A stretch of DNA of 64,000 nt from Escherichia phage EPIMRB01: the sequence record PQ657784, one strand, 5' to 3'. Positions 21,750 through 39,045 of the stretch are shown piece after piece. The number at the start of each line of letters is the position of its first letter. The first letter of the stretch is position 1. The position numbers were made by a program, and so were the translations under genes. Under the pieces are notes generated by a model, which was not told the origin of the DNA, ran no database searches, and saw only the letters and a program-made list of their open reading frames with translations.

Positions 21750-21755
21750 ATTTCC

Positions 21756-22310: not shown

Positions 22311-22569
22311 GAATTTGTTCTAAAATTTTAGAGTATTCCTTTGTATCAGATTTACGTACAATCGATACACTATACGGCATACTATCGGTGTCTTTTATAA
22401 AGCGTTCCAAATGACATTCTAATAAAATTTCTGGATTATAAATCGTGTACATCAAATTACCTGTTGCTCCACGATATTGACAGATTTCTACTGATTGAAC
22501 ACCATTCCATAATTTTGTTAAGACCAAATCACCTACTTCTAATTTAGGAAAGCCCATGTTATTCACCAA
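22291..22569 (-). CDS. Hypothetical protein, 92 aa
   Basis: ORF. Confidence 0.45.
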   Translation of the reverse strand: MVNNMGFPKLEVGDLVLTKLWNGVQSVEICQYRGATGNLMYTIYNPEILLECHLERFIKDTDSMPYSVSIVRKSDTKEYSKILEQIRANKKD

Positions 22570-22744
22570 TTAAAGTTTCAATATAAGAATCAAGATTTAC
22601 TTTAGCTTCTTCCATAAGAGTTTTGTATTTAATCTTGTTGGCATGTCCGGAGAAAGCTGATTCATCAATAATTGTTGATGTATGAACAGCTTTACTATAC
22701 GTCTCAATTAATTCTCTTAATTTAAAAGCCTGCTCACTTGTCAT
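22559..22744 (-). CDS. Hypothetical protein, 61 aa
   Basis: First ORF after the early promoter at 22876-22910. Confidence 0.4.
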   Translation of the reverse strand: MTSEQAFKLRELIETYSKAVHTSTIIDESAFSGHANKIKYKTLMEEAKVNLDSYIETLIGE

Positions 22745-22875
22745 TACATACTCCTCTGAATCATATCAATAATGTTGTTCACCAAATTATAAGTAAACAT
22801 TGGGTAATTATATTGAATCATCACATACACAACAAACAAAACTTTCATTCTCTTCTCCTTGGCAGTTGACAAGAT

Positions 22876-22910
22876 TACTATACCATAACCTTGCCAACTT
22901 GTAAACCATT
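22876..22910 (-). promoter_or_regulatory. T4-type early promoter (GTTTAC-N17-GTATAGTAAT)
   Basis: Reverse complement reads GTTTACAAGTTGGCAAGGTTATGGTATAGTAAT. Confidence 0.5.
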
Positions 22911-23082
22911 AAATGACGTTTTCGATAAAATTCTGAAGCTTTGTATGAGCATCAACCATGATTTTCATTTCTTCCTTTGCGAAAGCTGTGCCTCTTTCAC
23001 GAGAAGAACATTCATAGTCAGAAACTGCATTAGCATATTCTTCAATTAGCTTCATTAAAAACATCTGCTTTTCAGTTTTCAT
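22909..23082 (-). CDS. Small hypothetical protein, 57 aa (below track cutoff)
   Basis: ATG at 23082 to TAA at 22909, read by eye: MKTEKQMFLMKLIEEYANAV... Confidence 0.3.
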   Translation of the reverse strand: MKTEKQMFLMKLIEEYANAVSDYECSSRERGTAFAKEEMKIMVDAHTKLQNFIENVI

Positions 23083-23266
23083 TATTCCACCTAATCATTT
23101 CAAGATATTGAACTAACTTAGCTTTGGATTTATCCAAATCCTTTTTAGCTGTTTCTATACCGTCGTATGAATATCCTTCACAATGCTCAACTGCTAATTG
23201 ATATGAATCTATTTCAACATCACGTGCTAATTTAATGATTTTTTCAAACTGTTCGTGTGTTAGCAT
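23072..23266 (-). CDS. Hypothetical protein, 64 aa
   Basis: ORF. Confidence 0.4.
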   Translation of the reverse strand: MLTHEQFEKIIKLARDVEIDSYQLAVEHCEGYSYDGIETAKKDLDKSKAKLVQYLEMIRWNNEN

Positions 23267-23268
23267 AC

Positions 23269-23508
23269 TTAAACTCTCGTATTATGATCGATAATTTCAT
23301 CAAGAAACATATCTAACGCTTCTAAAGCATTATCAACTTTAGTTTCAAAGTCTTTAATGCCTTTATTCGAAATACCCGATGAATACCAAGCAAAGTCAAT
23401 CAGCTCTTCATCTGCTTTACGAATTGAAGCCACTAATTCCTTGATTTTATCTGCTTGCTCTATACTAATCATTATTCTACCACATATGACAGAGAGAATA
23501 TTGCACAC
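23269..23508 (-). CDS. Hypothetical protein, 67-79 aa (start ambiguous)
   Basis: ORF; alternative Met at 23472 would remove the overlap with the upstream gene. Confidence 0.4.
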
Positions 23509-23660
23509 GCCATGTGAGTTGCAACTTCATCACACATATTATAACGTTTCTTAAGAAGTTCTACAAGTTCTTCACTAGTAACTTCATCCATGTCGACGAA
23601 AAAATCACCATTAATGATGACGTAGATATTTCCTTCTTGATTGAGTGCTTCAATTTTCAT
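23472..23660 (-). CDS. Hypothetical protein, about 62 aa (start at the Met after promoter and GAGGAG RBS)
   Basis: Track ORF 23472..23705 trimmed to MKIEALNQ. Confidence 0.4.
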
Positions 23661-23687
23661 GATGTTCTCCTCTTTATCCGATAGTTG

Positions 23688-23725
23688 TATAGTATCACAG
23701 CTCAAACGGAAAGTAAACCGGTAAA
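23688..23725 (-). promoter_or_regulatory. T4-type early promoter with conserved leader
   Basis: Reverse complement reads GGTTTAC-N17-GATACTATACAACTATCGGATAAAGAGGAG. Confidence 0.55.
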
Positions 23726-23728
23726 ATG

Positions 23729-23751
23729 AAAAAAGTCTCCCGAAGGAGACT
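23729..23751 (-). terminator. Intrinsic terminator (AGUCUCC-UUCG-GGAGACU followed by a U run)
   Basis: Plus strand aaaaaagtctcccgaaggagact just downstream of ORF 23756..24142. Confidence 0.65.
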
Positions 23752-23755
23752 AATG

Positions 23756-24142
23756 TTATTCGAGGGAAAGAAGATATTTACTCTGGTAAAACATTCCAGT
23801 AATATCATCTATCGTGCTTTGAATGGCTGGAGGCATTTCTTTATAAATGCTGTTAGATTGGTCTAGTATGCGATCAATCATTTTAATTGTGTCGGTAGGA
23901 AGTTTACTGGCATCTGGAATTGAAGGCGTGTATTTTCTACCAGAATACCCCAAATATTGTTCACCAAATTTATCAATCAAATCTGGCAATTCGGAGAAAA
24001 TAAAATCGTATGCTTTGTGTCTAGCATAACTTTTAGTTTCAAAATGTGCAGAATGAAAATAAGCTTGTGCAGCCATTAATAAACCTAAGTATTCATCTGC
24101 CTTTGAAGGTTTTCCACTTTGTGAAAAGTCGCTGAATTTCAT
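23756..24142 (-). CDS. Hypothetical protein, 128 aa (position of T4 rI.-1)
   Basis: ORF immediately downstream of rI. Confidence 0.5.
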
Positions 24143-24432
24143 TCAGTCTCCAATTTAATGTTCATAATTCTAGCGTATGATTGTGCCATCTCCGCGCCTC
24201 GTTCTATACATTCAAAATCAGAAGAGCACGGGTCATTTTTATAGGTCGTTCTCATAAAACTATAGAACTGTTCAGATGATTCTACGCTTTTATTTTCAAA
24301 AAGCATATAAACATGTCTAATACCAGATTCCATAAATTTATCAAAATGAGGATCGACATTCGCTTCAATCGATGGTGATAAAGCAAATGACAATCCTAGC
24401 ATGGCAAATAGTGCCGTTGCTTTTAAGGCCAT
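24139..24432 (-). CDS. rI: Lysis-inhibition regulator rI-like membrane/periplasmic protein
   Basis: 97 aa with N-terminal signal-anchor MALKATALFAMLGLSFALS; size and position next to tk match T4 rI. Confidence 0.65.
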   Translation of the reverse strand: MALKATALFAMLGLSFALSPSIEANVDPHFDKFMESGIRHVYMLFENKSVESSEQFYSFMRTTYKNDPCSSDFECIERGAEMAQSYARIMNIKLETE

Positions 24433-24444
24433 AAAGGCCTCCTA

Positions 24445-24657
24445 TCATTTTTGTCCTGTATTTACTTTATGCCGATGCACGGCCTTAACTTTATCAAGGT
24501 ATTTTTCAAAATTTCGCAATCTAGTATAGTCTGCCGGAGATTGGTTGAGTGATACTTCTCGACGCAAAGCTGAAATGATATTTCCAACTTCCCTACGAAT
24601 TTCATCTAATTGAAGCACAGTAAGATTGCGAAGTTGCTTTTCAGTTAATTGTAGCAT
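24445..24657 (-). CDS. Hypothetical protein, 70 aa
   Basis: ORF between tk and rI. Confidence 0.5.
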
Positions 24658-24699
24658 ATATACCCCTTTAGTTAGATAAACCTATTTATAACTTTTGCA

Positions 24700-25281
24700 C
24701 TAACCGAGCTTTTTAGTTAATTCGTTCCAGTGTTTTCTACACAAAGAAACATAAATTTCATCACCAATACAGATTTGATTACCTTCTTTAACTGGTGTTC
24801 CATCTTCCATTAATCGAGCTGTCATAATCGCTTTTTTGCCGCAATGACAAACTGCCTTTAGTTCAATAAGTTTATCTGCAATCGCTAAAAGTTCTTTAGA
24901 ACCTTCAAACAATTTTCCAGCGAAATCAGTCCTTAATCCATAAGCCATAACAGGAACATTATATGTATCAACAATTCGACTTAATTGATGCACCTGTTCA
25001 GTTTTTAAAAACTGAGCTTCATCTACAAATACGCAATGAATATCTTTTTGTGCTTCAGCCCATTTATAGAACTCGAAAATATCCATATCATCTGTAATAA
25101 TATTCGCTTCCTGCTTAATTCCAATGCGAGAAACAACTTCACAGACAGAATCGCGAGTATCAATAGCAGGCTTAAGAACTAATACACCCATTCCACGTTC
25201 TTTATAATTATGTGCAGCAGTCAAAAGAGAAGCAGATTTTCCAGCATTCATTGCTGCATAAGTAAAAATTAAACTCGCCAT
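24700..25281 (-). CDS. tk: Thymidine kinase
   Basis: 193 aa; P-loop MNAGKS; C-terminal Zn-binding Cys pairs typical of type II TK. Confidence 0.92.
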   Translation of the reverse strand: MASLIFTYAAMNAGKSASLLTAAHNYKERGMGVLVLKPAIDTRDSVCEVVSRIGIKQEANIITDDMDIFEFYKWAEAQKDIHCVFVDEAQFLKTEQVHQLSRIVDTYNVPVMAYGLRTDFAGKLFEGSKELLAIADKLIELKAVCHCGKKAIMTARLMEDGTPVKEGNQICIGDEIYVSLCRKHWNELTKKLG

Positions 25282-25290
25282 ATCACCTTC

Positions 25291-25476
25291 TTAAAGCGTA
25301 TTCACATAAGCTATTAATTCATTTTCTTTCTTATCAAACCGATCAGCAAATTCTTCCTGCTGTTCGGGAGATAGCGGGCCGTATTCATCATAAAAGGTGT
25401 TTGCTTCTGTATGCTCATCTAGAAGTTCATGGATAAGCTCAAACAATTTATCTTTTTGTTCTTTACTCAGACTCAT
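25291..25476 (-). CDS. Hypothetical acidic protein, 61 aa
   Basis: ORF. Confidence 0.45.
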   Translation of the reverse strand: MSLSKEQKDKLFELIHELLDEHTEANTFYDEYGPLSPEQQEEFADRFDKKENELIAYVNTL

Positions 25477-25646
25477 ATATTAATTTCCAGGAGTTTTAAA
25501 ATAATTCGCTTTTGCTTAAATATTTCCATAGTTAAATGATCAGTATCTTTTTGACCAATTCCAATGGCAAAACCTTTATTAGCAGCGAGTTCAATTAAAT
25601 TATCAAGCTCACGTAACACTTCGTATTGTAACTCAAAACTATTCAT
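25473..25646 (-). CDS. Small hypothetical protein, about 57 aa (below track cutoff)
   Basis: ATG at 25646 to TGA at 25473, read by eye; ATGA overlaps at both ends. Confidence 0.3.
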   Translation of the reverse strand: MNSFELQYEVLRELDNLIELAANKGFAIGIGQKDTDHLTMEIFKQKRIILKLLEINI

Positions 25647-25870
25647 TTTGGTTTACCTTCTTTAACGAAATCTGGATAAGGATAAAATCCCGAATAAAAT
25701 CCTTCACCTTTATGATTGATACATCCTTTATTAGAACAATAGCACCAATAATCGAAATCACAAGTCATTTCATCGTTGCATAAAGCAAAAACAACCGGCC
25801 ACTTACACTTTTCACAGTGGGCATTTTTAAGAATACTAGTTTGGCTCATAACCATGTAACCTTTAAGCAA
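25643..25870 (-). CDS. Cys-rich small protein, 75 aa (probable Zn-binding)
   Basis: Cys pattern CEKCKW...C...C...CYC...C. Confidence 0.45.
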   Translation of the reverse strand: MLKGYMVMSQTSILKNAHCEKCKWPVVFALCNDEMTCDFDYWCYCSNKGCINHKGEGFYSGFYPYPDFVKEGKPK

Positions 25871-26058
25871 TATTCTTCTACATGTTGTTTACGACCTTTC
25901 TTATCAATAAAGGTATATTCAACGAATGTTCCAATGTAGTCTTTATCTACATCATGTGGACTATTAATTGGGCATTTAGTACGGCAAATGCGTTCCCATT
26001 GACGAATAATTACTGCTTTGTTTTTAGGATCAAACGGATGTGGGTAATGTACTTTCAT
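25846..26058 (-). CDS. Hypothetical protein, 70 aa
   Basis: ORF. Confidence 0.4.
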   Translation of the reverse strand: MKVHYPHPFDPKNKAVIIRQWERICRTKCPINSPHDVDKDYIGTFVEYTFIDKKGRKQHVEEYCLKVTWL

Positions 26059-26509
26059 AATCCACCACTATTAAATCAATATCAGGAGTAAACATGTCGA
26101 TTAATTTAGAAACCTTATCCCAATCGCCGCCAGCAATACCACAACCTATACGCGGAATGTAAATTACCGGTTTAAACAAAAGGGTTTCTGCCTGTAGATT
26201 TAATTCTATCATGCAGTTTACTAAAGCACCATAATCAAGATTAGGACCTGGTTCGTATTGCGTATACAAGTTATAACATATGCCAAACCCATTAGGTTTA
26301 TGTTTAAAAACAATAGACATATCACCGAGTTTTTCACGCGAACCATATTCAGTTGTGGTCTTATCTATTTCTAAAATTTTGGGATAGGCTCTTGCTAATT
26401 GACCAGCTACACCACTGCCCATTGTATGAAAACAGTTACACCCGTGCGCAATAATATTACCTTCAAGAAAGAGGGCGACAATATCGCCCTTGATATATTT
26501 TACAATCAT
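26030..26509 (-). CDS. Macro-domain protein (ADP-ribose binding/processing fold), 159 aa
   Basis: Macro-domain motifs KGDIVAL, GSGVAGQL, PRIGCGIAGG. Confidence 0.65.
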   Translation of the reverse strand: MIVKYIKGDIVALFLEGNIIAHGCNCFHTMGSGVAGQLARAYPKILEIDKTTTEYGSREKLGDMSIVFKHKPNGFGICYNLYTQYEPGPNLDYGALVNCMIELNLQAETLLFKPVIYIPRIGCGIAGGDWDKVSKLIDMFTPDIDLIVVDYESTLPTSV

Positions 26510-26853
26510 CTAGTACTCAATCCTCGATTATAAGAATCTACTAAACGGTCAACCATTGAATGACAAGCGGCTTTATCTTTTTCCTCCGCAACTGAACATT
26601 CTAGGGTATTCCACTTTTTAGCATATCGTTTTAATAATGTATCGTTTTTGTATCTGCTTGATTTATCTCTTTCTCCGTCTTTATATGCATATATTAATTT
26701 CTGCGCAAATTCAGCTTGGCATGCTTTATTTTTCCCACAATAATCTGCCGCAGTGCGGTTCACATACTCCCTAATTTCAGTATATGATGTATCTGCTGAC
26801 GCATAAGCAGAAAATGAAATTAATCCTATACATAAAACCAAAATTTTAGTCAT
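26506..26853 (-). CDS. Secreted hypothetical protein, 115 aa (in the position of T4 vs)
   Basis: N-terminal signal peptide MTKILVLCIGLISFSAYASA; identity with Vs not verified. Confidence 0.5.
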   Translation of the reverse strand: MTKILVLCIGLISFSAYASADTSYTEIREYVNRTAADYCGKNKACQAEFAQKLIYAYKDGERDKSSRYKNDTLLKRYAKKWNTLECSVAEEKDKAACHSMVDRLVDSYNRGLSTR

Positions 26854-27391
26854 TTACTATTTCCAAAAGTTTATTATTTTTAAGGTAATTAGCCTTTTCT
26901 AGGACTTCAGAAGCATATTTAGAACCTGCTTTAACATTCCATCCCGAATTATAAGAGGATATTGCTTTTCTTATATCGCCCTTATGTATATTTAACCAAT
27001 AAGAAAGTTCAATGTACGCCCAGGAAGCTGAATTGGATCGTTTATTCAACATTCTTTTTATTTCAGCATCGGTCATATTATAACCAAGTTCCTTAACTCT
27101 CGCTCGCATAGTAGGCAAATAATTTTGGAACATTCCGTAAGCATGATGTTTTGGTTTAGATTTTAAATTAACTCCGCCAGAGCTTTCTTGCCATAAAATA
27201 GCAGCCATTATATGACCTAATCCGCTCTTGTGGATATTTTTGTGTGTTTTATATTTTCCATCCTTAGAAAATTGTTCCCCGAATTGATACGCGTAACGCA
27301 TGTTATCGAGTTGGACATTACTGAAAGTATGCTCGGAGCTATGTGCCATCATTGAAATGGCCAATAGACCAGCGAGTAGTGCTTTTCTCAT
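26846..27391 (-). CDS. Secreted lytic-transglycosylase-like protein, 181 aa
   Basis: Signal peptide; SLT-like motifs LWQESSGG, GMFQ, SYNSGW. Confidence 0.6.
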   Translation of the reverse strand: MRKALLAGLLAISMMAHSSEHTFSNVQLDNMRYAYQFGEQFSKDGKYKTHKNIHKSGLGHIMAAILWQESSGGVNLKSKPKHHAYGMFQNYLPTMRARVKELGYNMTDAEIKRMLNKRSNSASWAYIELSYWLNIHKGDIRKAISSYNSGWNVKAGSKYASEVLEKANYLKNNKLLEIVND

Positions 27392-27398
27392 GTTTACC

Positions 27399-27860
27399 TC
27401 ATTGAGTTTTAATTACTGCTTTAGAAGCCTTTCCTGGTAAACGACGACTGTTGATAATTGCCATCCTACATTGAAGTGACGGGTCTTTGAACTTCTCATT
27501 AGGTTTACAAACTGTAAATCCAAGCCAAAGATTTCCATCTGTAATTTCTAAACGTCCAGGACGATATTCAACTCCATCAATAAAATCCTCATCAATGTCA
27601 GGACGCGGAGGCATACTCAGGAATTCATTAACTTCTAAAACATGGTCTTTTATTTTATGGAATAATTCAAAAACATATGTCTCATCAATCTCCCGTTGAA
27701 TTGCACGATCAAGAAGATGTTGAGAATATTTTAGATGAAACGATGAGACCCCTGCTGCTTTTGATGCCTCACGAATCTCATTGTTAATTTGACGAAACTC
27801 CGACTCAAAGTGACGACGAAGCTTATTTCGACGGATAAAAACTTCTGTATTGATAGTCAT
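27399..27860 (-). CDS. regB: Sequence-specific endoribonuclease RegB
   Basis: 153 aa; sequence MTINTEVFIRRNKLRRHFESEF matches T4 RegB as recalled; preceded by an early promoter. Confidence 0.88.
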   Translation of the reverse strand: MTINTEVFIRRNKLRRHFESEFRQINNEIREASKAAGVSSFHLKYSQHLLDRAIQREIDETYVFELFHKIKDHVLEVNEFLSMPPRPDIDEDFIDGVEYRPGRLEITDGNLWLGFTVCKPNEKFKDPSLQCRMAIINSRRLPGKASKAVIKTQ

Positions 27861-27888
27861 GTTATTCTCCTCTTAACTGATAGAAAAA

Positions 27889-27925
27889 TTATACCACAGT
27901 CAAGAGGAAAAGTAAACAGTTATTC
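27889..27925 (-). promoter_or_regulatory. T4-type early promoter for regB (GTTTAC-N17-TGGTATAAT)
   Basis: Reverse complement reads CTGTTTACTTTTCCTCTTGACTGTGGTATAAT. Confidence 0.6.
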
Positions 27926-28198
27926 TTTAAATCTAGTCAATTTATTCATAGACTTTGAAACTTCTGCACGAACCTCATGTAGATTTTTGAGCTGTTCAAG
28001 ACGCTGCGTATAGTAAGCAATTTCATCTTCTTCGAGACAGTCCTGTGAATCTTCTTTAAGATAACGTGCATAGTCCTGAAAAGCGTTACGAACTACTTCC
28101 TGGAAATCATCAAGACTTTGAATTTTCTTAGGAGCAGCAGATACACGACGAGGGGCAGTATAATACTCATAACCAAACCCTGCGCTTAATTGAGCCAT
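27920..28198 (-). CDS. Hypothetical protein, about 92 aa
   Basis: ORF trimmed to the Met giving an ATGA junction with the upstream gene. Confidence 0.45.
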
Positions 28199-28464
28199 TA
28201 GTATTTTTCCTCTGGTTGGAACACTGCACGACAAGCCCACATACTGGCTTCTTTGAGTTTCGTTTTAGCAATAGTTAACTGATCGAGGCTTTCAGCATAA
28301 TTCTTCGCGAGTTCATCGTCTTCACAGCTATCAAATGCTTCCCAAAATTCATCGTATAAAGCATCAAAGATAAGTCCTAAACGAACTTCAGCGTCTTTGA
28401 TAGCATTCACTTTACCGATTTTCTCTTCGGTATGCGGCTTATAACCCTTAATATCTTCAATCAT
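28198..28464 (-). CDS. Hypothetical protein, about 88 aa
   Basis: ORF trimmed to the Met with a GAGGAAG RBS. Confidence 0.45.
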
Positions 28465-28678
28465 ATTTGACTTCCTCACCAGTACATAAATCATATTCAA
28501 CTAAACGAATAGGTTCATGAATGCCATATCCCTGAACAGAAATTTCTGTCGTAGGATAAATTCCATCAATATCACCCATATTCCAGGCTTCATTAAATTG
28601 CTGTTCGCCTGAATTACTAAACCACTCGGCGAAAGCATTTAGCACATCTTCAGAACCTTCAATAATTATCTTTGCCAT
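28457..28678 (-). CDS. Hypothetical protein, 73 aa
   Basis: ORF. Confidence 0.45.
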   Translation of the reverse strand: MAKIIIEGSEDVLNAFAEWFSNSGEQQFNEAWNMGDIDGIYPTTEISVQGYGIHEPIRLVEYDLCTGEEVKYD

Positions 28679-29040
28679 TACAAACTCTCGGTGAAGGTAC
28701 GAGCGATAACGTCGCGCTGCTGTTCCGGAGTCAGAGAGTTAAAGCGAACTGCATAACCTGATACACGGATGGTCAGCTGCGGATATTTTTCCGGATGCTT
28801 AACTGCATCTTCCAGAGTTTCACGACGCAGAACGTTAACGTTCAGGTGTTGACCACCTTCAATTTTAACTGTAGGTTGTGTTTCAATTTCAATTTCACGG
28901 GCATGCAAACCGTAGAAAATTTCCGGGTCTACAAAAGAGTCCTCTTTAAAGGTTTTAGAGACAATAATTCGTGCTTGAATACCATCTTCAAAATAAATAG
29001 TACCTTTATGTGTGCCTTCAAGAATTTGATATGCTTTCAT
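28678..29040 (-). CDS. Autonomous glycyl-radical cofactor-like protein (GrcA/YfiD-like)
   Basis: 120 aa; C-terminal glycyl-radical motif RVSGYAVRF as in GrcA and the C-termini of PFL/NrdD. Confidence 0.75.
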
Positions 29041-29047
29041 ATAAACC

Positions 29048-29377
29048 TCAATTAGAAAATAAATTTATCCAAGATTGTTCTTTAATTAAAAATGGCTCAG
29101 AATCATATGCCATTAAACTTTGGGTGATTAGTCCTTTAAAAGGTCCATCAATAAATTCCATGGTAAAATATGGAATTTTATTCATTAACTGTGCGTTAGG
29201 AGCAGTGCACAAAACTCTGCATCCTTTGAATACACCCTTTTGTAATTTGTATTGCTTGGGATAAAATTCGCTCAAAATGTTATTATTTGCTAAAATTTCA
29301 AAATGATTCACCAATTTATTTTTAATAGTTTTTGGTGAAAAATAAAGATATTCGAAAAGCTGTGTGTCTGTCATCAT
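29048..29377 (-). CDS. Hypothetical protein, 109 aa
   Basis: ORF. Confidence 0.45.
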
Positions 29378-29973
29378 TGCATTCCAATCACAAAAAATTG
29401 AGGACGAACTGTTTCACCTGTTTCAGCATTATAGCTTCGACAACAGTGTTGTACCGTTTTAATATGGATATTGTAAATCTTATCCATATCAGGAGCTTTA
29501 ATAGGTTCGTCAATTATGTACAAGATACGAGAAAGCGATAACCCACGGAATTTATGACCTTCATTACCGATAAAACTACGGACAGAATCAGTAAATAAAC
29601 GGAATCGAATATCATCGCTAGAATAACGAGAAAATTCTTTTTCAATGTTGCCAGCAGAAATTTTAGCGTAAGCTGAAGTATTAGAAAGAACAATAACTGT
29701 TCCGCCATCATACAGCCAATTAGCGGCAAAGTTAGTCACAGCAATTGATTTACCGGATTGACGTCCACCATCTATACGAAGTGTGCAGTACTGTTTGAGC
29801 ACATCTTCCATTGGTGGAAGATAATCATTCTTACAGAGTTCTTCTACTCTAGCATCAGAATGGTGTGTAAAAGCATTCATCAGGGATAGATACGGGCCAG
29901 TTAAAAATGTTCTCATATTTTCTCTCTTAATTTTTGGGCCATTCCATGGCACATGAGTTGTCCATTCCTGCAT
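29374..29973 (-). CDS. Small P-loop NTPase with terminase-ATPase-like Walker motifs, 199 aa
   Basis: Walker A GGRQSGKS (compare gp17 SRQLGKT in this window) and Walker B ILYIIDE. Confidence 0.55.
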   Translation of the reverse strand: MQEWTTHVPWNGPKIKRENMRTFLTGPYLSLMNAFTHHSDARVEELCKNDYLPPMEDVLKQYCTLRIDGGRQSGKSIAVTNFAANWLYDGGTVIVLSNTSAYAKISAGNIEKEFSRYSSDDIRFRLFTDSVRSFIGNEGHKFRGLSLSRILYIIDEPIKAPDMDKIYNIHIKTVQHCCRSYNAETGETVRPQFFVIGMQ

Positions 29974-30051
29974 TACCCATTACCGCACTCAGGCTCGACC
30001 TTATCACAGGTTGGCGGGAATACCTCAAATGAGGTCCAGGTTGTTCCCATA

Positions 30052-30525
30052 TTATTTGAACGATTTAACGTACTGAATAGAACCTTTACTATTTACAAAG
30101 GCAATTTTACCATTTTTATTATACATTGTAGCAGTACGTTGATAGCCATAAGTTTGTTTACCAGATTGATAACCAACTAATGCAAAATTATCTTCACCCA
30201 TTTTATTCTGTTTAGCGCGAATGCGTTCATGACCATGTGCCATAAGAACCTTAGCATCACCAGTTGCAATGGATCGACGAGTTTTTTCATCTTCAACTGT
30301 ATTAACAAAGTCGTCAAATGAATCAAATTTAGCATGAGATTTATTATACAATTTTCCATCTACTGCATAATTATATCCCTGTACATCCATCTCAACTTCT
30401 GTACCATCATCCAATACAGCAGTAATTTTCTGTCCTTTTTTAAATTTCAAAAGATCAGTAAAAGATTCAGCAATAATTTGAGAATTAATAGCTGCTTCAG
30501 TGATAAATTCTTGATATGTTTTCAT
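30052..30525 (-). CDS. Internal (capsid-packaged) protein with capsid-targeting sequence, 157 aa (IPII/IPIII position)
   Basis: N-terminus MKTYQEFITEAAINSQIIAE matches the T4 internal-protein targeting leader with protease-type cleavage after I-x-E. Confidence 0.7.
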   Translation of the reverse strand: MKTYQEFITEAAINSQIIAESFTDLLKFKKGQKITAVLDDGTEVEMDVQGYNYAVDGKLYNKSHAKFDSFDDFVNTVEDEKTRRSIATGDAKVLMAHGHERIRAKQNKMGEDNFALVGYQSGKQTYGYQRTATMYNKNGKIAFVNSKGSIQYVKSFK

Positions 30526-30579
30526 GTGTTTCCTTTAAATATTTTAATTAGTAATTTGTCTCTTCAAGCAACTGTGAAT

Positions 30580-30613
30580 ATACTATCACAATTCTAGGAG
30601 AAAGTAAACAACT

Positions 30614-30615
<2 letters not shown>
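30580..30615 (-). promoter_or_regulatory. T4-type early promoter (GTTTAC-N17-ATAGTATAT)
   Basis: Reverse complement reads GTTTACTTTCTCCTAGAATTGTGATAGTATAT; overlaps the lysozyme stop. Confidence 0.5.
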
Positions 30616-31582
<967 letters not shown>

Positions 31583-31586
<4 letters not shown>

Positions 31587-32071
31587 TTTAATTTCCTGCA
31601 TTCAGTGATAAAGTTATTTAAATTTTGAGTATATTTCTTTTCATCAAAAATCTTTTGTTGTCTGCGTAGCCGCCATGGCATTTCAATGAACGTGTACCAT
31701 ATCCCAGATAATATTGCTGCTGTAAAAATATTAACAAGTATGGTTAAAAGAATCCAATCTCCTATTCTGTCCATTGGATTTTTTATAAAAAAGTAAAATA
31801 CGAATGATGTCACAGGAAGACTAATAATATACCACAGAATCATAATCTTATCTGTGAACCAATCAGCGTTCGTTAACTTAGCGCGACCATTATAAATACA
31901 CACGAATTTATCATCTGTTGCAGTAGATGGCTTAACTGGTTGATATCCCATTCTAAACTCCCTAATCAACAAATTTTTCATATCTTCGGAACAGCCATTC
32001 CAGTCAACTCTATCAACTGAAATGCCATCATCCACATCATCTAAATCATACCAGCGAGTTTTTAAAATCAT
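31583..32071 (-). CDS. Small membrane protein, 162 aa; member of a tandem paralogue family
   Basis: Two hydrophobic helices; C-terminal motif NFITECRKLK shared with neighbours. Confidence 0.5.
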
Positions 32072-32430
32072 TTAATTTTCCTGCAATCGCTCACAAACTC
32101 TTTCATTGATTCATTTTCAATATAAGACATGTAGCTATTGTATTCTTTTAATTGTATTTTGTAATCCTTTTTTCTTTGCCAATTTATGTTAAAATTATCA
32201 TAATGAAAATATAGTATAGTGCCAAAGAATGAAAATAATGAAATCGCTATAGTAAAACGAAGTTCACTCCAAACCTCTGTTATAATTGCTGAACCATCGA
32301 TGTTTAAAATAATACAATCAATCATTAATCCAATAAGACTACCCGCAAGAGCTGCAAATACTGATACGGCAAGAATTAATAGTACCTCAGGAAACGAATA
32401 TTTGACTTTATTTAGTTTTGGCTTTTGCAT
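32068..32430 (-). CDS. Small membrane protein, 120 aa; tandem paralogue
   Basis: Two hydrophobic helices; C-terminal EFVSDCRKIK. Confidence 0.5.
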   Translation of the reverse strand: MQKPKLNKVKYSFPEVLLILAVSVFAALAGSLIGLMIDCIILNIDGSAIITEVWSELRFTIAISLFSFFGTILYFHYDNFNINWQRKKDYKIQLKEYNSYMSYIENESMKEFVSDCRKIK

Positions 32431-32792
32431 CGTGATTCCTTAACAAATTTCATAATTTCGTTAAATTCATACATATCTAGTTTAAGCTGGTGTTCCTTTT
32501 TAATCTTTTTACACTGAGCTTTCCATTCACGTACGCGTTTACGATAATGTCTTCCTTGATACCAGTATCCTACCCAATTTACAGGTACTAATAAAAATGG
32601 AACTATCATTGGAAGAATTAGTGTTGACACAAATATTACATCAAATTTATTAACAGTCATAACGTCTATAACCATTCCAGCTATAAATGATACAACTACA
32701 ACAGGACCTATTAATACATCGGTAGAAATTATCTGGCGCTTTAGTTCATACTTCAAAGGTTTACTTGGAAGGTATAGTGATGGCTTTGACAT
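32412..32792 (-). CDS. Small membrane protein, about 126 aa; tandem paralogue
   Basis: Two hydrophobic helices; C-terminal KFVKESRCK; start trimmed to an internal Met. Confidence 0.5.
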   Translation of the reverse strand: MSKPSLYLPSKPLKYELKRQIISTDVLIGPVVVVSFIAGMVIDVMTVNKFDVIFVSTLILPMIVPFLLVPVNWVGYWYQGRHYRKRVREWKAQCKKIKKEHQLKLDMYEFNEIMKFVKESRCKSQN

Positions 32793-33369
32793 ATTCTCTG
32801 CATTCCTTAACAAATTTTTCTAATAATAAATCGCTTTCAAAATTAGGATTTTCCACGAATTTATCAAAAAGATCATCAACAATAGTTAAGATATTCTTTT
32901 TACTAAGAATACGCTTATTTTCATATTTTGTTTCAGAGTCAACTATAAGAGTAAAGAAATATTTCTTTCCCTGAAATTTTACCGTAGTATCAATATAAAA
33001 TAAATTTGACTTTTGTAAATTACGTTTAAACCCTGCGTCACTTAAACTGTAAACGCCAAGATAATCATAATCGTCGTTTAAATAACAAACTGTCCATTCA
33101 GGGGAAACGAAATCAGTAAATTCAACATCAAAATCACACGTCAATGAATGAATTGATTCAATACTTTTAATGAGTATTCCAGGGCGTATTAAAGACTTTT
33201 TACCTCTATAAAATCTTCCAGAAAGACTTTCATCAGTTTCATATGAAGACCCCCAATAGTAATTACGTCCTTCTGCCATACGTTTAAGAGCATTTAGTAA
33301 TTGGTCTGGAACATCAACCTGTCTTTGGAACTCTTCAAACATTGAATTGAAATCATTTTGCATTCTCAT
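32761..33369 (-). CDS. Hypothetical soluble protein, 202 aa, carrying the same C-terminal motif as the downstream membrane paralogues
   Basis: C-terminal EKFVKECREYVK. Confidence 0.5.
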   Translation of the reverse strand: MRMQNDFNSMFEEFQRQVDVPDQLLNALKRMAEGRNYYWGSSYETDESLSGRFYRGKKSLIRPGILIKSIESIHSLTCDFDVEFTDFVSPEWTVCYLNDDYDYLGVYSLSDAGFKRNLQKSNLFYIDTTVKFQGKKYFFTLIVDSETKYENKRILSKKNILTIVDDLFDKFVENPNFESDLLLEKFVKECREYVKAITIPSK

Positions 33370-33390
33370 TCCTATTTACTCCAAGTAATA

Positions 33391-33404
33391 GGGGCCGAAG
33401 CCCC
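33391..33404 (-). terminator. UUCG tetraloop hairpin (ggggc-cgaa-gcccc)
   Basis: Inverted repeat at the 3' end of ORF 33411..34004. Confidence 0.4.
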
Positions 33405-33410
33405 TTATCA

Positions 33411-34004
33411 TTATTTCAGAGAATTAATGTATTCCTGAACATCGGCAGAGGTAGTTTCAACCCCAGAAATATTGCCATTAAAGGTTTCAACTCGAGCAAG
33501 AGTATCTTCAATATCAACTTTAGTCAGTGCTGCAATTTCAACTACATCATCGGCAGTACTAATTCCAAGGGCATTTGCCGCACGAGTTTCACGGATATAT
33601 TCCAATTTAACTGCAAGTTCTTGGCGAGCATCATCTAACTCAACTACTTTCTTGGCGATTTCAATTCGCATTTCAGCATAACCATCAGCTTTAGTAGTCA
33701 ACTGTTCAGCTGTTCGACGATATAGTAAACCGAGCTTAGCATGCATTGTTACATCTTGACCTTCGGAAAGAAGTTTACGAATTTCACGCTCTTTTGATTC
33801 GGCTTGTCGATTCTTTTCGATAACAAGTTCACGAATACGTTTTTCTTCATTAATAGATTTAACAGAAGCAGTTTTTAGATCTTTAATTTTATCAAGTAGT
33901 TTTGCTGCTGCAGCAGTATACTGTTCTTCAACAGATAAATTTTTAGCCATAGCAGAACCAAGTTTAGTGCGAATAAACTCAACAATTTTCTTCAGTGTGT
34001 TCAT
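33411..34004 (-). CDS. Coiled-coil protein, 197 aa
   Basis: Long charged helical repeats; no enzymatic motif. Confidence 0.5.
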
Positions 34005-34047
34005 AGTATTTCCTTAGGTTGATTAAAAATTAAAATCTGTGAAAGAA

Positions 34048-34578
34048 TTATATCATGCTATTTAAGAGATGTAAACTATTTTTAATTTTACAAATTCGTT
34101 CAGCTTCTTCAACAGCGGCGGCGATAATGCTTTTAGCTATAGGAGTACTAATACTAGTAGCTTTTACACTTAACACGATTTCTTTATCTTTACCAGGCCA
34201 ACCCCACGATTTTTCACCGTGAGTGCCTTTAATTACAGCAGACACCTCAAGTGAGCATCCATTATCATATGTTTTTACATTGACAACCCAAGGTTCACTT
34301 TTCTCAATCGGTTTCTCAATCGGTTTATCCCAGTAAATATTAAGAATACGTGGGACATCAAATTTGGCAGGACAAATCTTAACCGTAAGACCTTCGCTTT
34401 CTAGCCAATTAATAAGAGGGCGTTCATACAGGCGACGATGTGGGCTTGGGATTCGACAAGCCTTATGTCCGTTGCTTGCGGCTTCACTAAGCTGTTCTAA
34501 TACCTGCTTTTGCATTATTGATAAGATACCATCAAAAGATTTTTCGGAAGTTTCATTCAGTTCGGTATAAAGAGACAT
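34048..34578 (-). CDS. Hypothetical protein, 176 aa
   Basis: ORF. Confidence 0.5.
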   Translation of the reverse strand: MSLYTELNETSEKSFDGILSIMQKQVLEQLSEAASNGHKACRIPSPHRRLYERPLINWLESEGLTVKICPAKFDVPRILNIYWDKPIEKPIEKSEPWVVNVKTYDNGCSLEVSAVIKGTHGEKSWGWPGKDKEIVLSVKATSISTPIAKSIIAAAVEEAERICKIKNSLHLLNSMI

Positions 34579-34633
34579 AACAGTTTCCTCAAATTATAGG
34601 CTCATAATATCTCAATCATGAGCCTATGTAAAC

Positions 34634-34897
34634 TTATTTCATATTATTGAAATATTCTTCTGCGATTTCGTCGTTATCGTGGTAAACTTTAGAAGACAGT
34701 TTAACATAACCTTCAGCGGTGAACATGTTAATCACAACCTTTACAGTATACCACTGACCATCTTCATTACCCATTACTGCATAGGTTTCAAACATCGGAT
34801 GGTCAGGACCGATAACTTTAATATCATTCACTGTACGACCGAAATCTTCTGAAACGCATTTCATAAAGAAGTTGAACAGTTCGCCGTAATTATCCAT
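34634..34897 (-). CDS. Hypothetical protein, about 87 aa (start at the Met after promoter and GGAGAAT RBS)
   Basis: Track ORF 34634..34951 trimmed to MDNYGELF. Confidence 0.45.
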   Translation of the reverse strand: MDNYGELFNFFMKCVSEDFGRTVNDIKVIGPDHPMFETYAVMGNEDGQWYTVKVVINMFTAEGYVKLSSKVYHDNDEIAEEYFNNMK

Positions 34898-34942
34898 TTT
34901 ATTCTCCAAGTTGTTTTTCTGTATCAGTAGTTGATAGTTGTA

Positions 34943-34995
34943 TAGTACCATGGAAGAACGGGGATGTAAACCGTTTTGTGAAAAAATTTTTAAAA
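34943..34995 (-). promoter_or_regulatory. T4-type early promoter with conserved leader
   Basis: Reverse complement reads AAAAATTTTTTCACAAAACGGTTTAC-N17-GGTACTATACAACTATCAACTAC. Confidence 0.55.
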
Positions 34996-35104
34996 AGTTT
35001 TAGGGAATTCTAGGGCAGGGATGGGCAATTAAAGGATAGGATAATATATTATAAAGGGTATAAACTAAATGATGCCTAGAGAGGTCCAGAAAGGCCTAGA
35101 TATC

Positions 35105-35132
35105 AAAAAGCCCCAACCTTTCGGTCGGGGCT
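35105..35132 (-). terminator. Intrinsic terminator (AGCCCC-loop-GGGGCU plus U5); copy 1 of an exact 28-nt repeat
   Basis: Plus strand aaaaagccccaacctttcggtcggggct just after the stop of ORF 35139..35612. Confidence 0.65.
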
Positions 35133-35138
35133 AAAATG

Positions 35139-35612
35139 TTATTTGATTTGTTTAGCAGACCAAATGCGGTCTTTGATGATTTTTTGGATGTCTTCAACAT
35201 ACTCAAGAGAGTGAGCATGTGGGTTATCTTTGAAACTATAAGCACGAGCTAGCTTTTGGCCTTCGGTTTTGATTACTAAAAGCTCTTTAAGGATAGCTTC
35301 ATATTTAGCGATAATTCCTTTAACAATATTTTTTTCTTGTGCAGCTTTAGGATCTGCTTTAGGAGCAGGTTTACCCGAAGCCTTTGCAAAAGCAGCGCCA
35401 GTAGCAACTAAACTTTTCCAGGCCATACTAACTGCATTTCCCGTAAATCCTTCTGCTTTCATGTCGCGAGCAAACTGGAATCGTGATTCGTCAGAAGCAT
35501 CTTTATAGGAATATTTACCCGCTGCAATGGCTGCTTTTGCGACAGCTTGAATTTCGGTGCTAGATGCTTCATTTAACACCGCTTCATTTAAAAATTGAGC
35601 ATATGATTTCAT
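35139..35612 (-). CDS. Internal-protein-like protein with capsid-targeting-type leader, 157 aa
   Basis: N-terminus MKSYAQFLNEAVLNE resembles the internal-protein leader MK(T/S)YxEF(I/L)xE with an L-x-E cleavage context; Ala/Lys-rich body. Confidence 0.6.
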   Translation of the reverse strand: MKSYAQFLNEAVLNEASSTEIQAVAKAAIAAGKYSYKDASDESRFQFARDMKAEGFTGNAVSMAWKSLVATGAAFAKASGKPAPKADPKAAQEKNIVKGIIAKYEAILKELLVIKTEGQKLARAYSFKDNPHAHSLEYVEDIQKIIKDRIWSAKQIK

Positions 35613-35652
35613 CTTATTTCCTGTTTTAATTCGTGGATTTAATATACTACTA

Positions 35653-35660
35653 TATTTATA
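35653..35660 (-). promoter_or_regulatory. Late promoter TATAAATA upstream of the internal-protein-like gene
   Basis: Reverse complement of 35653-35660 is TATAAATA. Confidence 0.5.
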
Positions 35661-35662
35661 CT

Positions 35663-35690
35663 AAAAAGCCCCAACCTTTCGGTCGGGGCT
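35663..35690 (-). terminator. Intrinsic terminator; copy 2 of the exact 28-nt repeat
   Basis: Identical sequence to 35105-35132. Confidence 0.6.
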
Positions 35691-35693
35691 AAG

Positions 35694-35996
35694 CCTTGCG
35701 GCAACCTTGTCGGGGTTCCACCTGCTAAGGCAAGTGTTTGTACGAAACGCCGGGATTCGAACCCGGTTATTAAGCAGTTGACGCTACTCAATATTTTTAA
35801 AAGGCCATATCTCGACCATATCCGAACGTTCCGTCAAAAACGCTACTCGGCTTACGGCAAAGATATTTCCTCGAATCGATAATTCGGTGCGCCGTTTCTG
35901 CTGTGATAGTAAAGAATCAGAACACAGTAAAACTGTGGGAGAAACTATACTCCAGGGAACATCAGTCCGACGACTTACCGGTAGCGACCCGGTTTC
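35694..35996 (-). ncRNA. Non-coding region next to the tRNA cluster containing a tRNA-like T-arm; candidate small stable RNA or tRNA remnant
   Basis: No credible ORF; 35749-35768 cgccgggattcgaacccggt is a perfect T-stem-loop (GGTTCGAATCC) without a full cloverleaf. Confidence 0.3.
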
Positions 35997-36347
35997 TTAG
36001 TATTCTTTTAAAGCATCAACCTGTTCACGACGTTTACGCCATAAATCAATTACTTCATACGCAGATTCAGCATTTCGAATTGGACGGCATTTATATAAAG
36101 ACTTATGATTTTGATATTGTGTAGATAACGGAATTTTATCTAAAAGGTCTTTACGTTCAAAATATTCGTAACCATCTAAACCAAATGAACGATTTTTGAG
36201 AAATTGCCAATGACCGTATTCGTTTTCGACATAAACATAATCTGCATGCTGATAAAGTAAATTAATTACACGTTCAGAAATAACAGTGTCATTGTGATTA
36301 AAATAGAATGTTAAATCATGAACTACTAAATAAACATTACCTTTCAT
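35997..36347 (-). CDS. Hypothetical protein, 116 aa, immediately downstream of the tRNA cluster
   Basis: ORF; no motif recognised. Confidence 0.45.
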   Translation of the reverse strand: MKGNVYLVVHDLTFYFNHNDTVISERVINLLYQHADYVYVENEYGHWQFLKNRSFGLDGYEYFERKDLLDKIPLSTQYQNHKSLYKCRPIRNAESAYEVIDLWRKRREQVDALKEY

Positions 36348-36363
36348 ATTTTCCTCACTTAAT

Positions 36364-36439
36364 TGGTCGAGGCAGTAGGGATCGAACCTACGACCTAGGA
36401 CTTAGAAGGTCCTTGCTCTTCCTTCTGAGCTATGCCTCG
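36364..36439 (-). tRNA. tRNA-Arg (anticodon UCU)
   Basis: Cloverleaf folded by eye: 7-bp acceptor, D-stem GCTC/GAGC, anticodon loop CTTCTAA, T-loop TTCGATC, encoded CCA. Confidence 0.8.
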
Positions 36440-36443
36440 GATT

Positions 36444-36518
36444 TGGCGGACGTGATAGGATTCGAACCTATAACCAATCGCTTAACAGGCGATCGCTCTG
36501 CCATTGAGCTACACATCC
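36444..36518 (-). tRNA. tRNA-Asn (anticodon GUU)
   Basis: Acceptor GGATGTG/CACGTCC, D-arm AGCTCAATGGCAGAGC, anticodon loop CTGTTAA, T-arm, CCA. Confidence 0.7.
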
Positions 36519-36522
36519 AAAT

Positions 36523-36609
36523 TGGTGGGGAGTGATGGAGTCGAACCACCCGAGTCGCAATGACAATGAATTTACAGTCCACACCGCTACCTCTACGGGA
36601 TAACTCCCC
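36523..36609 (-). tRNA. tRNA-Tyr (anticodon GUA), long variable arm; D-arm non-canonical
   Basis: Perfect acceptor GGGGAGT/ACTCCCC, anticodon loop CTGTAAA, T-arm GGTGG-TTCGACT-CCATC, CCA; D-stem pairs only weakly. Confidence 0.6.
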
Positions 36610-36618
36610 AAATTAATT

Positions 36619-36693
36619 TGGTGGCCCTGGGTGGAATTGAACCACCATCTGGCGATTATGAGTCGCTTGCTTGAACCTTCCAGCTACAGGGCC
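36619..36693 (-). tRNA. tRNA with CAU anticodon (tRNA-Ile2-like; Met not excluded)
   Basis: Acceptor GGCCCTG/CAGGGCC, anticodon loop CTCATAA, T-arm, CCA. Confidence 0.7.
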
Positions 36694-36694
36694 T

Positions 36695-36770
36695 TGGTGC
36701 TGATTGACGGAATCGAACCGCCGACCTTCTCATTACAAGTGAGTTGCTCTTCCTTCTGAGCTAAATCAGC
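36695..36770 (-). tRNA. tRNA-Thr (anticodon UGU)
   Basis: Acceptor GCTGATT/AATCAGC, D-arm AGCTCAGAAGG, anticodon loop CTTGTAA, T-arm, CCA. Confidence 0.8.
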
Positions 36771-36775
36771 AAAGC

Positions 36776-36865
36776 TGGCGGAGGCGATAGGATTTGAACC
36801 TATGAGTCGCCGGAGCGACTGCCGGTTTTCAAGACCGGTGCATTAAACCACTCTGCCACGCCTCC
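36776..36865 (-). tRNA. tRNA-Ser (anticodon UGA), long variable arm
   Basis: Acceptor GGAGGCG/CGCCTCC, anticodon loop CTTGAAA, long extra arm, T-arm GGTTCAAATCC. Confidence 0.8.
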
Positions 36866-36867
36866 AG

Positions 36868-36941
36868 TCTCCATACAAGGATTTGAACCTTGGACCTCCT
36901 GATCCCAAATCAGGCGCTCTACCAAACTGAGCTACACGGAG
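36868..36941 (-). tRNA. tRNA-Pro (anticodon UGG), CCA not encoded
   Basis: D-arm AGCTCAGTTTGGTAGAGC, anticodon loop TTTGGGA, T-arm GGTTCAAATCC; acceptor includes G-U pairs. Confidence 0.7.
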
Positions 36942-36951
36942 TAAATTAAAT

Positions 36952-37025
<74 letters not shown>

Positions 37026-37030
37026 AAATT

Positions 37031-37119
37031 TGGTGCGAGAAGTGGGACTCGAACCCACAAGGAAATCATTCCGCAGCATTTTAAGTGCTGTGCCTTTACC
37101 AATTTGACCATTCTCGCGC
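37031..37119 (-). tRNA. tRNA-Leu (anticodon UAA), long variable arm
   Basis: Acceptor GCGCGAG/CTCGCAC, anticodon loop CTTAAAA, long extra arm, T-arm GGTTCGAGTCC, CCA. Confidence 0.8.
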
Positions 37120-37191
37120 TGGGAATAAAGGACTTGAACCTTTGCATCCTGGAATCAAAATCCAGTGCCTTACCAACTTGGCTAATTCCCA
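37120..37191 (-). tRNA. tRNA-Gln (anticodon UUG), CCA not encoded
   Basis: Acceptor TGGGAAT/ATTCCCA, anticodon loop TTTTGAT, T-arm GGTTCAAGTCC. Confidence 0.75.
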
Positions 37192-37277
37192 ATTATTAAC
37201 AAAGGCTCTCAAACAAGAACCCTTGATGATAGAGGGTATTAATCAGTGCGGTATGAGTTAATAATAACAAATAATTC

Positions 37278-37793
37278 TTAAAGCAAATCAACCATTTTAA
37301 CAGTCGGCAAAACAATTTCTTCTTCAATATAAGTAAATTCTACATGTTCAACTACACGCAAGAAATCATAGTCATAGTATTCAGAAGCATGACCAAGAAT
37401 ATCAATGAGGCCTTCAGATATCTTATTACCATTCACAAAGAATAAATCAAATACACGTTCTTCATCTTCTTCGGATTTATTACCAAGGTCAACTTCTATG
37501 TCAAAGAGCTTTTTAATGAATTCTGGATAAAGTTGGTCTGAGAACAGTCCTTCAACCAAATATTCATATATAAAAAGCTCTTGCTCGCTGAACAAACCAT
37601 TACCACAATAACGTTCAACTTTGGTACTAGAATGACGACTCTTAAACTTCTTCAAGAGATATTTAAATTGTTGGAGCTCATTCTCTTCTACGCCAAACAG
37701 TGTTTTGGTTTTATAGTTGTCACCATCATTTTCACAGGTAGTGACATCAATTACGTAACCCTTAGGAATTGTGCTGCCTAAACGAATATACAT
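37278..37793 (-). CDS. Hypothetical acidic protein, 171 aa
   Basis: ORF upstream of the tRNA cluster. Confidence 0.5.
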   Translation of the reverse strand: MYIRLGSTIPKGYVIDVTTCENDGDNYKTKTLFGVEENELQQFKYLLKKFKSRHSSTKVERYCGNGLFSEQELFIYEYLVEGLFSDQLYPEFIKKLFDIEVDLGNKSEEDEERVFDLFFVNGNKISEGLIDILGHASEYYDYDFLRVVEHVEFTYIEEEIVLPTVKMVDLL

Positions 37794-38089
37794 TTGTTCA
37801 CCATATTAATATAAGTATATTTAATACATTCAAGACCCAAAGGATTCTTGAAAATATCATATTCAAGAGGACCTTTTTCTGTTTCAATAAAGAAATCAAA
37901 ATTTACTGTATTAAATTTACGGTCTTCCTTCACTAATTTAACTTGAGAAGATGAACGGTCAATGTAAACCTTTTCAACTTCAAAACATGTTAAAATGCCA
38001 TAATCATCAATCAAGGCTTTAGCAGCATCTTGATCATATTTATATCCATTTTCAACGGACGATACTTTCGCATAAAGAATCATTATCAA
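37778..38089 (-). CDS. Hypothetical protein, 103 aa
   Basis: ORF. Confidence 0.5.
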   Translation of the reverse strand: MIMILYAKVSSVENGYKYDQDAAKALIDDYGILTCFEVEKVYIDRSSSQVKLVKEDRKFNTVNFDFFIETEKGPLEYDIFKNPLGLECIKYTYINMVNKCIFV

Positions 38090-38466: not shown

Positions 38467-38467
38467 T

Positions 38468-38653: not shown

Positions 38654-38680
38654 TTTATTCTCCTCGGTAGTTGATAGGGT

Positions 38681-39017: not shown

Positions 39018-39045
39018 TTTATTTTCCTAATTAATTTTGATGAGA

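Follow-up and report, generated by a model that had tools for sequence, protein, structure and literature searches.

We report here that the 157-codon open reading frame between the lysozyme gene e and a vs.8 homologue of Escherichia phage EPIMRB01 (PQ657784) is, as judged from its sequence, ip4, the already named gene for the T-even internal protein Ip4. Its product is very probably a small head protein that enters the host together with the DNA, as its leader and putative cleavage sites suggest, and by analogy with T4 Ip1, Ip2, and Ip3 it is most likely an injected inhibitor of a restriction-type host defence. The whole reading, in which the ip4 product would be targeted by its leader, cut by gp21, injected, and put to use in disabling a nuclease-type defence, seems to us somewhat better than an even bet, with its functional part drawn from analogy. 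The gene is already known, being named, annotated, and represented in Pfam, so that its recognition is correct and the gene itself no discovery. All coordinates refer to the window, by which we mean the whole 64,000-nucleotide stretch of DNA that was analysed, and the principal features are as follows.

31135..31142, minus strand: late-promoter box TATAAATA before e, matched exactly, 27 nt 5' of the start codon.
30580..30609, minus strand: predicted early promoter of T4 type (GTTTAC, 18 nt with TG at -15/-14, TAGTAT), from a pattern match.
30531..30535, minus strand: Shine-Dalgarno sequence AAGGA, 5 nt upstream of the ip4 ATG, read from the sequence.
30052..30525, minus strand: ip4 coding sequence, encoding the Ip4 precursor, from the open reading frame, Pfam, PHROG, and near-identity to named Ip4.
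30496..30525, minus strand: capsid-targeting sequence MKTYQEFITE, codons 1-10, ending in I-T-E, from the match to the T4 leader.
30466..30495, minus strand: linker AAINSQIIAE, codons 11-20, with the second motif I-A-E, from the conservation of E20.
30055..30465, minus strand: predicted mature Ip4, codons 21-157, 137 aa, 15.5 kDa, pI 9.3 (computed).

The reading frame, as given by the open reading frame list and the sequence itself, runs on the minus strand from an ATG start through 157 codons to a stop codon. Its translation opens MKTYQEFITEAAINSQIIAE, the first ten residues being MKTYQEFITE, and the string MKTYQEF occurs a single time in a six-frame translation of the 64-kb window. The original prediction of an internal-protein gene of 157 residues at 30052-30525 had the coordinates and the length exactly right and gave no strand, to which minus is to be added; it was also right that this is the size of neither IPII nor IPIII, the T4 ipII and ipIII products having 100 and 193 residues. 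Ip4 matches Pfam DUF7412 (PF24183) with 319.4 bits (E=5.7e-96; the curated cut-off is 27 bits), covering positions 1-157 of the 158 in the profile, and PHROG 3155, 'internal virion protein', with E=6e-102, and these matches, with the canonical leader and the (L/I)-x-E sites described below, bear out the assignment to an internal-protein gene. The name Ip4 is said to go back to the literature on T-even polymorphism, to Repoila et al. in 1994. Phages T2, RB18, RB33, and many others encode a protein 100% identical to that of the window, and Klebsiella and Salmonella T4-like phages encode homologues at 68-71% identity (both tblastn). The BFVD model of UniProt Q38388, 'Ip4 [Enterobacteria phage K3]', is a structure match with a sequence identity of 99%, and the gene is annotated 'Ip4' in ime09 and Shfl2, the ime09 protein being 98.7% identical to that of the window. 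We note that the Tequatrovirus Escherichia phage AUBRB02 (OY979771.1) matches positions 20000..44000 of the window with 100% identity. Identity to a characterised internal protein, which had been named as a ground for setting the prediction aside, is found as regards the name, Ip4, and not as regards a function.

Both the capsid-targeting leader and the (L/I)-x-E head-protease motif that had been read from the sequence are present. The first ten residues match the leader of T4 IPII and IPIII, MKTYQEFIAE, at nine of ten positions, with A9T as the sole change. In IPIII residues 1-10 suffice for packaging, with positions 4 and 7 acting in targeting and positions 8 and 10 in cleavage (PMC9026906), and Ip4 keeps all four of these key residues (Y4, F7, I8, and E10). 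Across an alignment of 14 family members that are 61-99% identical, every sequence has F7, E10, and E20, with Y or F at position 4 and I, L, or M at position 8. At the level of the motif, (L/I)-x-E occurs as I-T-E at residues 8-10 and as I-A-E at residues 18-20; all homologues but one, which has T, carry I, L, M, or V at position 18, residues 11-17 are variable, and residues 10-20 of the AlphaFold2 model have pLDDT values below 50. The invariance of E10 and E20, the variability of residues 11-17, and the low pLDDT across residues 10-20 lead us to infer two cuts by gp21, one predicted after I-T-E10 and the other after I-A-E20, with codons 11-20 probably forming a second piece of the propeptide. 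A third candidate site, M-G-E at residues 109-111, was rejected, the corresponding residues being P-G-E in most homologues. In the literature on Ip4 and DUF7412 in phages we found no report of virion presence, cleavage, or injection, and the paper on Yersinia phage fPS-2 is without virion proteomics.

The ip4 gene lies between e (30614..31108, minus strand) and the vs.8 homologue (29374..29973, minus strand). The order of genes here is e-ipIII-ipII-denV-vs.8 in T4 and e-ip4-vs.8 in the window, T2, and KIT03, whereas Sf25 has an additional IpII-like gene ahead of ip4 and ime09 has a 93-aa ip gene and denV in the corresponding position; the ip4 loci of Tequatrovirus differ solely in this e-ip4 interval, which is empty in the window, T2, and KIT03 and filled in Sf25 and ime09. 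In a pairwise BLASTN comparison of the window with T4, 96% identity extends from upstream of e into ip4 and ends at 30494, the end of the 10-codon leader. No homology to T4 is detected from 30493 to 30053, and it restarts at 30052, the final base of the ip4 stop codon, which aligns with the base immediately 3' of the T4 denV stop. Since the homology breaks at the end of the leader and restarts at the stop, the mature-coding part of ip4 is a discrete cassette, and it occupies the exact place of T4 ipIII(mature)-ipII-denV. The module of promoter, ribosome-binding site, and leader that precedes the ip4 cassette is found nearly identical before T4 ipIII and at 74% identity before T4 ipII, so that ip4 shares with the other members of the ip locus both its position in the e-vs.8 slot and the module behind which it sits. 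The cassette structure of ip4 fits the published view that T-even phages exchange head cargo by means of the shared leader (PMC9026906).

Two features of the surrounding interval can be added. The segment from e to vs.8 (29974..30613, minus strand) is without denV, ipII, and ipIII, as in T2 and KIT03; denV, which encodes endonuclease V for UV repair, is in this interval in T4 and ime09. T2 is classically more UV-sensitive than T4, with which the absence of denV agrees. The vs.8 homologue (29374..29973, minus strand) is a 199-aa open reading frame belonging to PHROG 1488 (unknown function), with a Walker-A-like GGRQSGKS and a weak similarity to the ATPase region of the terminase large subunit (PHROG 2, E=1.3e-4).

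The early promoter that had been claimed upstream of ip4 is supported at the level of sequence, as GTTTACTTTCTCCTAGAATTGTGATAGTAT at 30580..30609 on the minus strand, 55 nt 5' of the ATG. Its form, GTTTAC-N18-TAnnWT with TG, we take to be the T4 early-promoter architecture of the Liebig and Rüger consensus. The pattern GTTTAC-N18-TAnnWT has 15 matches in the window, all 15 of them on the minus strand, against a chance expectation of 0.59 (from shuffles), and the majority also have TG two bases 5' of the -10 element; the copy before ip4 is nearly identical to the elements that precede T4 ipIII and T2 ip4. A generic sigma-70 scan missed this promoter, because its -10 and -35 hexamers score 8/12 against the E. 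coli consensus, and the T4-specific pattern search recovered it. The block AAAGGA.AC..ATG, which includes the ribosome-binding site, is kept 5' of every ip gene in the alignment.

A dedicated late promoter directly 5' of ip4 was not found, in that the interval from e to ip4 contains no TATAAATA box, and the nearest such box on the minus strand is the one before e at 31135..31142. Nor is there a terminator-like site on the minus strand from e to ip4. In a Klebsiella Jiaodavirus the e stop adjoins the ip4 start (TAAATG) and in a Salmonella Gelderlandvirus the two genes overlap, and in these Klebsiella and Salmonella phages ip4 is without a promoter of its own. From the late box before e, the uninterrupted stretch between the genes, and the abutment of e and ip4 in these relatives, we infer that the e late promoter is the likely source of late ip4 transcripts, by read-through. 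Between the early promoter and the ip4 start, positions 30553..30562 (minus strand) read AGTTGCTTGA in the window and in Sf25 and TTACTTGA in T4 and T2. T4 middle promoters have a MotA box with the core TGCTT(t/c)A, to which the former is close, and TAATTA follows it 13 nt downstream; the resemblance is probably due to chance.

The distribution of ip4 is broad and its sequence is strongly conserved. It occurs in 319 phage records and T4-type e in approximately 501 (megablast), so that about 319 of roughly 501 records with this lysozyme gene have ip4, and in Tequatrovirus the e-proximal ip slot is most often filled by Ip4, which the classic phage T2 also has. Homologues are found in phages of E. 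coli, Klebsiella, Salmonella, and Serratia. In 290 records the identity of Ip4 is 99% or more (tblastn); for T4 IPIII, the mature part occurs in 261 records, in most of them with 80-95% identity. The ip4 gene of the window differs from that of T2 by nine synonymous and no non-synonymous changes (dN/dS 0), from that of KIT03 by five and one (dN/dS 0.05), and from that of ime09 by 23 and two (dN/dS 0.02); this range of 0-0.05 is similar to that of the lysozyme gene e, and ip4 is under strong purifying selection. Between Tequatrovirus and Jiaodavirus the identity is 69% for Ip4 and 66% for e, which indicates that Ip4 has diverged in step with its essential neighbour, and the pairing of e and ip4 is kept in Jiaodavirus (Klebsiella) and Gelderlandvirus (Salmonella) T4-like phages. 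The description of internal-protein loci as hypervariable therefore applies to what the locus contains and does not extend to ip4 itself, with its dN/dS of 0-0.05 and its presence in about 319 of about 501 records.

Exhaustive searching of 1.84 billion representative proteins with a profile returned three further, distant relatives of Ip4 (P0015-P0017), all short, leader-bearing, phage-type proteins without an annotated domain, of which P0015 is 35-39% identical to Ip4 homologues (tblastn). The distant relatives start in a leader-like manner, M-N-F-x-x-F-L-N-E (e.g. MNFEQFLNE), and such N-termini would argue for the leader-based reading of Ip4. The 2.8-kb contig that encodes one of them has no informative neighbour genes.

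The AlphaFold2 model of Ip4 (mean pLDDT 78.8, pTM 0.73) predicts an N-terminal beta-hairpin, three helices, and a C-terminal beta-sheet, and many positions of mature Ip4 are invariant across genera in the 14-homologue alignment. Foldseek searches with this model gave no informative relative in the PDB (best E=0.16, TM below 0.2) and only Ip4 itself among viral models, and PADLOC returned nothing for Ip4. Searching the PDB by sequence gave spurious matches, the best of them to a designed repeat protein at E=5.8e-4 in which no single matched stretch passed alone. An enzymatic role suggested by the invariant H64 and H99 was considered and rejected, since both histidines are replaced in P0015-P0017, and there is accordingly no sign of a catalytic site in Ip4.

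Elsewhere in the window, a second 157-aa open reading frame (35139..35612, minus strand; upstream signals to 35700) opens MKSYAQFLNEAVLNEASSTE, its N-terminus resembling the leader M-K-S/T-Y-x-x-F-L-x-E, and it contains further x-x-E sites. On its 5' side, also on the minus strand, are a hairpin with a T-run, an exact TATAAATA late box at 35653..35660, and an AGGAAA ribosome-binding site. It belongs to PHROG 2280 (unknown function), has no Pfam match, and is found in 511 phage records, where it is 'hypothetical protein', 'Phage protein', or unannotated among the matches listed; the product may be a packaged protein that has escaped recognition. Nine tRNA genes are clustered at 36367..37191 on the minus strand, and T4 is usually credited with eight.

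The nature of the known internal proteins provides the basis for considering what Ip4 does. Each of T4 Ip1, Ip2, and Ip3 inhibits a single type IV restriction enzyme of the GmrSD type, without cross-protection (PMC12373910), IPIII without its leader is still functional in the cytoplasm (PMC9391042), and Bas37_0260 inhibits McrBC, so that the targets of the family extend beyond GmrSD (bioRxiv 10.1101/2025.11.20.689424). With Ip1-3 and Bas37_0260 as precedents, inhibition of a nuclease-type defence by the injected protein is the likeliest role for Ip4. We propose that early synthesis of the 157-aa precursor would depend on the promoter of ip4 itself and late synthesis on read-through from that of e, and that the leader would carry the precursor into the prohead core, where gp21 would cleave it after E10 and probably also after E20. 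The 137-aa basic protein would remain in the head and then be injected with the DNA, and once in the cell it would bind and disable a nuclease-type host defence acting against the incoming glucosyl-hydroxymethylcytosine DNA. Because ip4 is as conserved as e across phages of E. coli, Klebsiella, and Salmonella, the target would probably be widespread in the Enterobacteriaceae.

Several observations count against Ip4 as an injected inhibitor. No reproducible inhibition of active GmrSD variants was obtained with 'ip4-10', among which we match ip4 by name (PMC12373910 Supplementary Fig. 9). T2 encodes a protein identical to the Ip4 of the window, yet it is restricted by the GmrSD systems of ECOR21 and ECOR17 (PMC12373910), and the fold searches provide no informative relative. 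Identity of at least 99% in 290 records, against 80-95% for IPIII, is also unusual for an inhibitor engaged in an arms race. The target of Ip4 is not among the GmrSD variants screened so far (PMC12373910, with ip4 matched by name), and these negatives together with the unusual conservation suggest either a different and more widely conserved target or a general role with the head or the DNA.

The latter, in which Ip4 would be packaged and injected as a general basic protein of the head core or associated with the DNA, with no specific anti-defence target, we regard as unlikely. Such a protein could aid scaffold organisation, DNA charge neutralisation, or ejection, its mature sequence being kept for packing or DNA binding, and mature Ip4 is indeed basic (pI 9.3), as are T4 IPII and IPIII, while a T4 head contains about 300 copies of the internal proteins, which at low salt bind DNA (PMC9026906). 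Strong purifying selection, and vertical inheritance alongside e across genera, also suit housekeeping better than an arms race, and the negative GmrSD screens (PMC12373910) would be expected. However, T4 is without ip4 and has unrelated proteins in the slot, so the specific structure of Ip4 is not required for head assembly; all T-even internal proteins of known function are inhibitors of type IV restriction, and the highly conserved globular domain, which the model predicts to be well folded, would exceed what charge neutralisation needs. The failure of 'ip4' to affect the GmrSD variants in the screen (PMC12373910), and the restriction of T2 by two GmrSD systems in spite of its Ip4, are equally in keeping with an injected inhibitor of a defence other than type IV restriction, such as an abortive-infection or nucleotide-depleting system, another first-response system, or a widely conserved host nuclease. 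The spread of ip4 over phages of E. coli, Klebsiella, Salmonella, and Serratia would suit a broadly conserved target of this kind, and the early promoter would permit ongoing supply after injection. Nonetheless, we think this quite unlikely, as PADLOC, Pfam, and the fold searches point to no particular target and the leader-bearing precedents all indicate type IV restriction.

A further alternative dispenses with the head, and has Ip4 barely packaged despite its leader and working chiefly in the cytoplasm, as an early product of its own promoter. The strong early-type promoter directly 5' of the gene, the lack of a TATAAATA box between e and ip4, and the activity of leaderless IPIII in the cytoplasm (PMC9391042) are in its favour, but we consider it highly improbable. 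The leader is conserved in both protein and DNA, E10 and E20 are invariant even in homologues that are 61-70% identical, and leader-like N-termini persist at 35-39% identity, a pattern that would be hard to account for without packaging and processing. Moreover, ip4 of the Klebsiella and Salmonella phages lies directly against the lysozyme gene, which is expressed late, and lacks a separate promoter, and T4 ipIII has the same early promoter and an established virion protein as its product (PMC9026906).

The conservation of Ip4 raises a further proposal, which we put forward tentatively as a possibility well short of even, namely that Ip4 was the original occupant of the e-proximal ip slot in enterobacterial Tevenvirinae, has been passed down vertically, and neutralises a conserved first-response host factor. 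If so, Ip4 would be another kind of injected effector than Ip1-3, with a fold without known relatives, and its target would be a conserved factor common to E. coli, Klebsiella, Salmonella, and Serratia and not a fast-evolving GmrSD variant. Injected internal proteins are the earliest phage molecules to face host immunity, and specific inhibition of type IV restriction enzymes has been demonstrated for four of them (Ip1, Ip2, Ip3, and Bas37_0260). The target of Ip4, once found, would explain part of the host range of T-even phages, which is relevant for the choice of therapeutic phages, and could expose a widespread defence or host factor.

The system closest to that described here is the Ip4 of K3, T2, RB18, RB33, and ime09, which is the same protein, 99-100% identical across 157 residues, encoded in the same place by vs.8 and e, and with no substantive difference. 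Among the internal proteins of T4 the resemblance is of another sort. The alignment with IPII and IPIII that had been proposed as a check gives a likeness led by the leader, and the mature part of Ip4 is unrelated to them; with IPIII, BLASTP aligns residues 2-13 and no others, and with IPII and IPI the alignments are of low identity and led by the leader, such that by mature-domain similarity Ip4 is not an orthologue of IPIII, IPII, or IPI. Nevertheless, T4 IPIII is similar to Ip4 in that it is encoded in the slot directly 3' of e and has a basic mature protein, and the two genes have a nearly identical early promoter, ribosome-binding site, and first approximately 32 nt of coding sequence. 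They differ in that IPIII has 183 mature residues, compared to 137-147 in Ip4, and a known target, the two-gene GmrSD system of E. coli ECOR17, whereas in Ip4 a further cleavage motif, at residue 20, is conserved.

T4 IPI (IPI*; Pfam IPI_T4, PF11634), an inhibitor of the GmrSD of E. coli CT596, is similar to Ip4 in having a propeptide of about 20 residues ending in I-x-E (19 in IPI, a predicted 20 in Ip4), a small basic mature protein, and its own early-type promoter upstream, but it is encoded at a different locus, 38730..39017. In the window this is a 95-aa minus-strand gene that matches Pfam IPI_T4 over residues 20-95 (E=2e-53), with an early-type promoter at 39048..39077 on the same strand, and because the match starts at residue 20 its propeptide would comprise 19 residues ending in I-T-E. 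With ipI and ip4 both in the window, the phage has at least two leader-bearing internal proteins. Ip4 itself has no match to Pfam IPI_T4, and its BLASTP similarity to IPI (E=3e-4) is driven mostly by the N-terminus, with a weak match to PHROG 4363 (E=0.0077). Bas37_0260, from the HIDEN-SEQ preprint, is, like Ip4, a non-T4, leader-bearing internal protein that was recognised by its N-terminal leader, and according to its authors it lacks homology to T4 IPI, IPII, and IPIII beyond that leader (bioRxiv 10.1101/2025.11.20.689424); unlike Ip4, it is encoded at the ipI locus, away from e.
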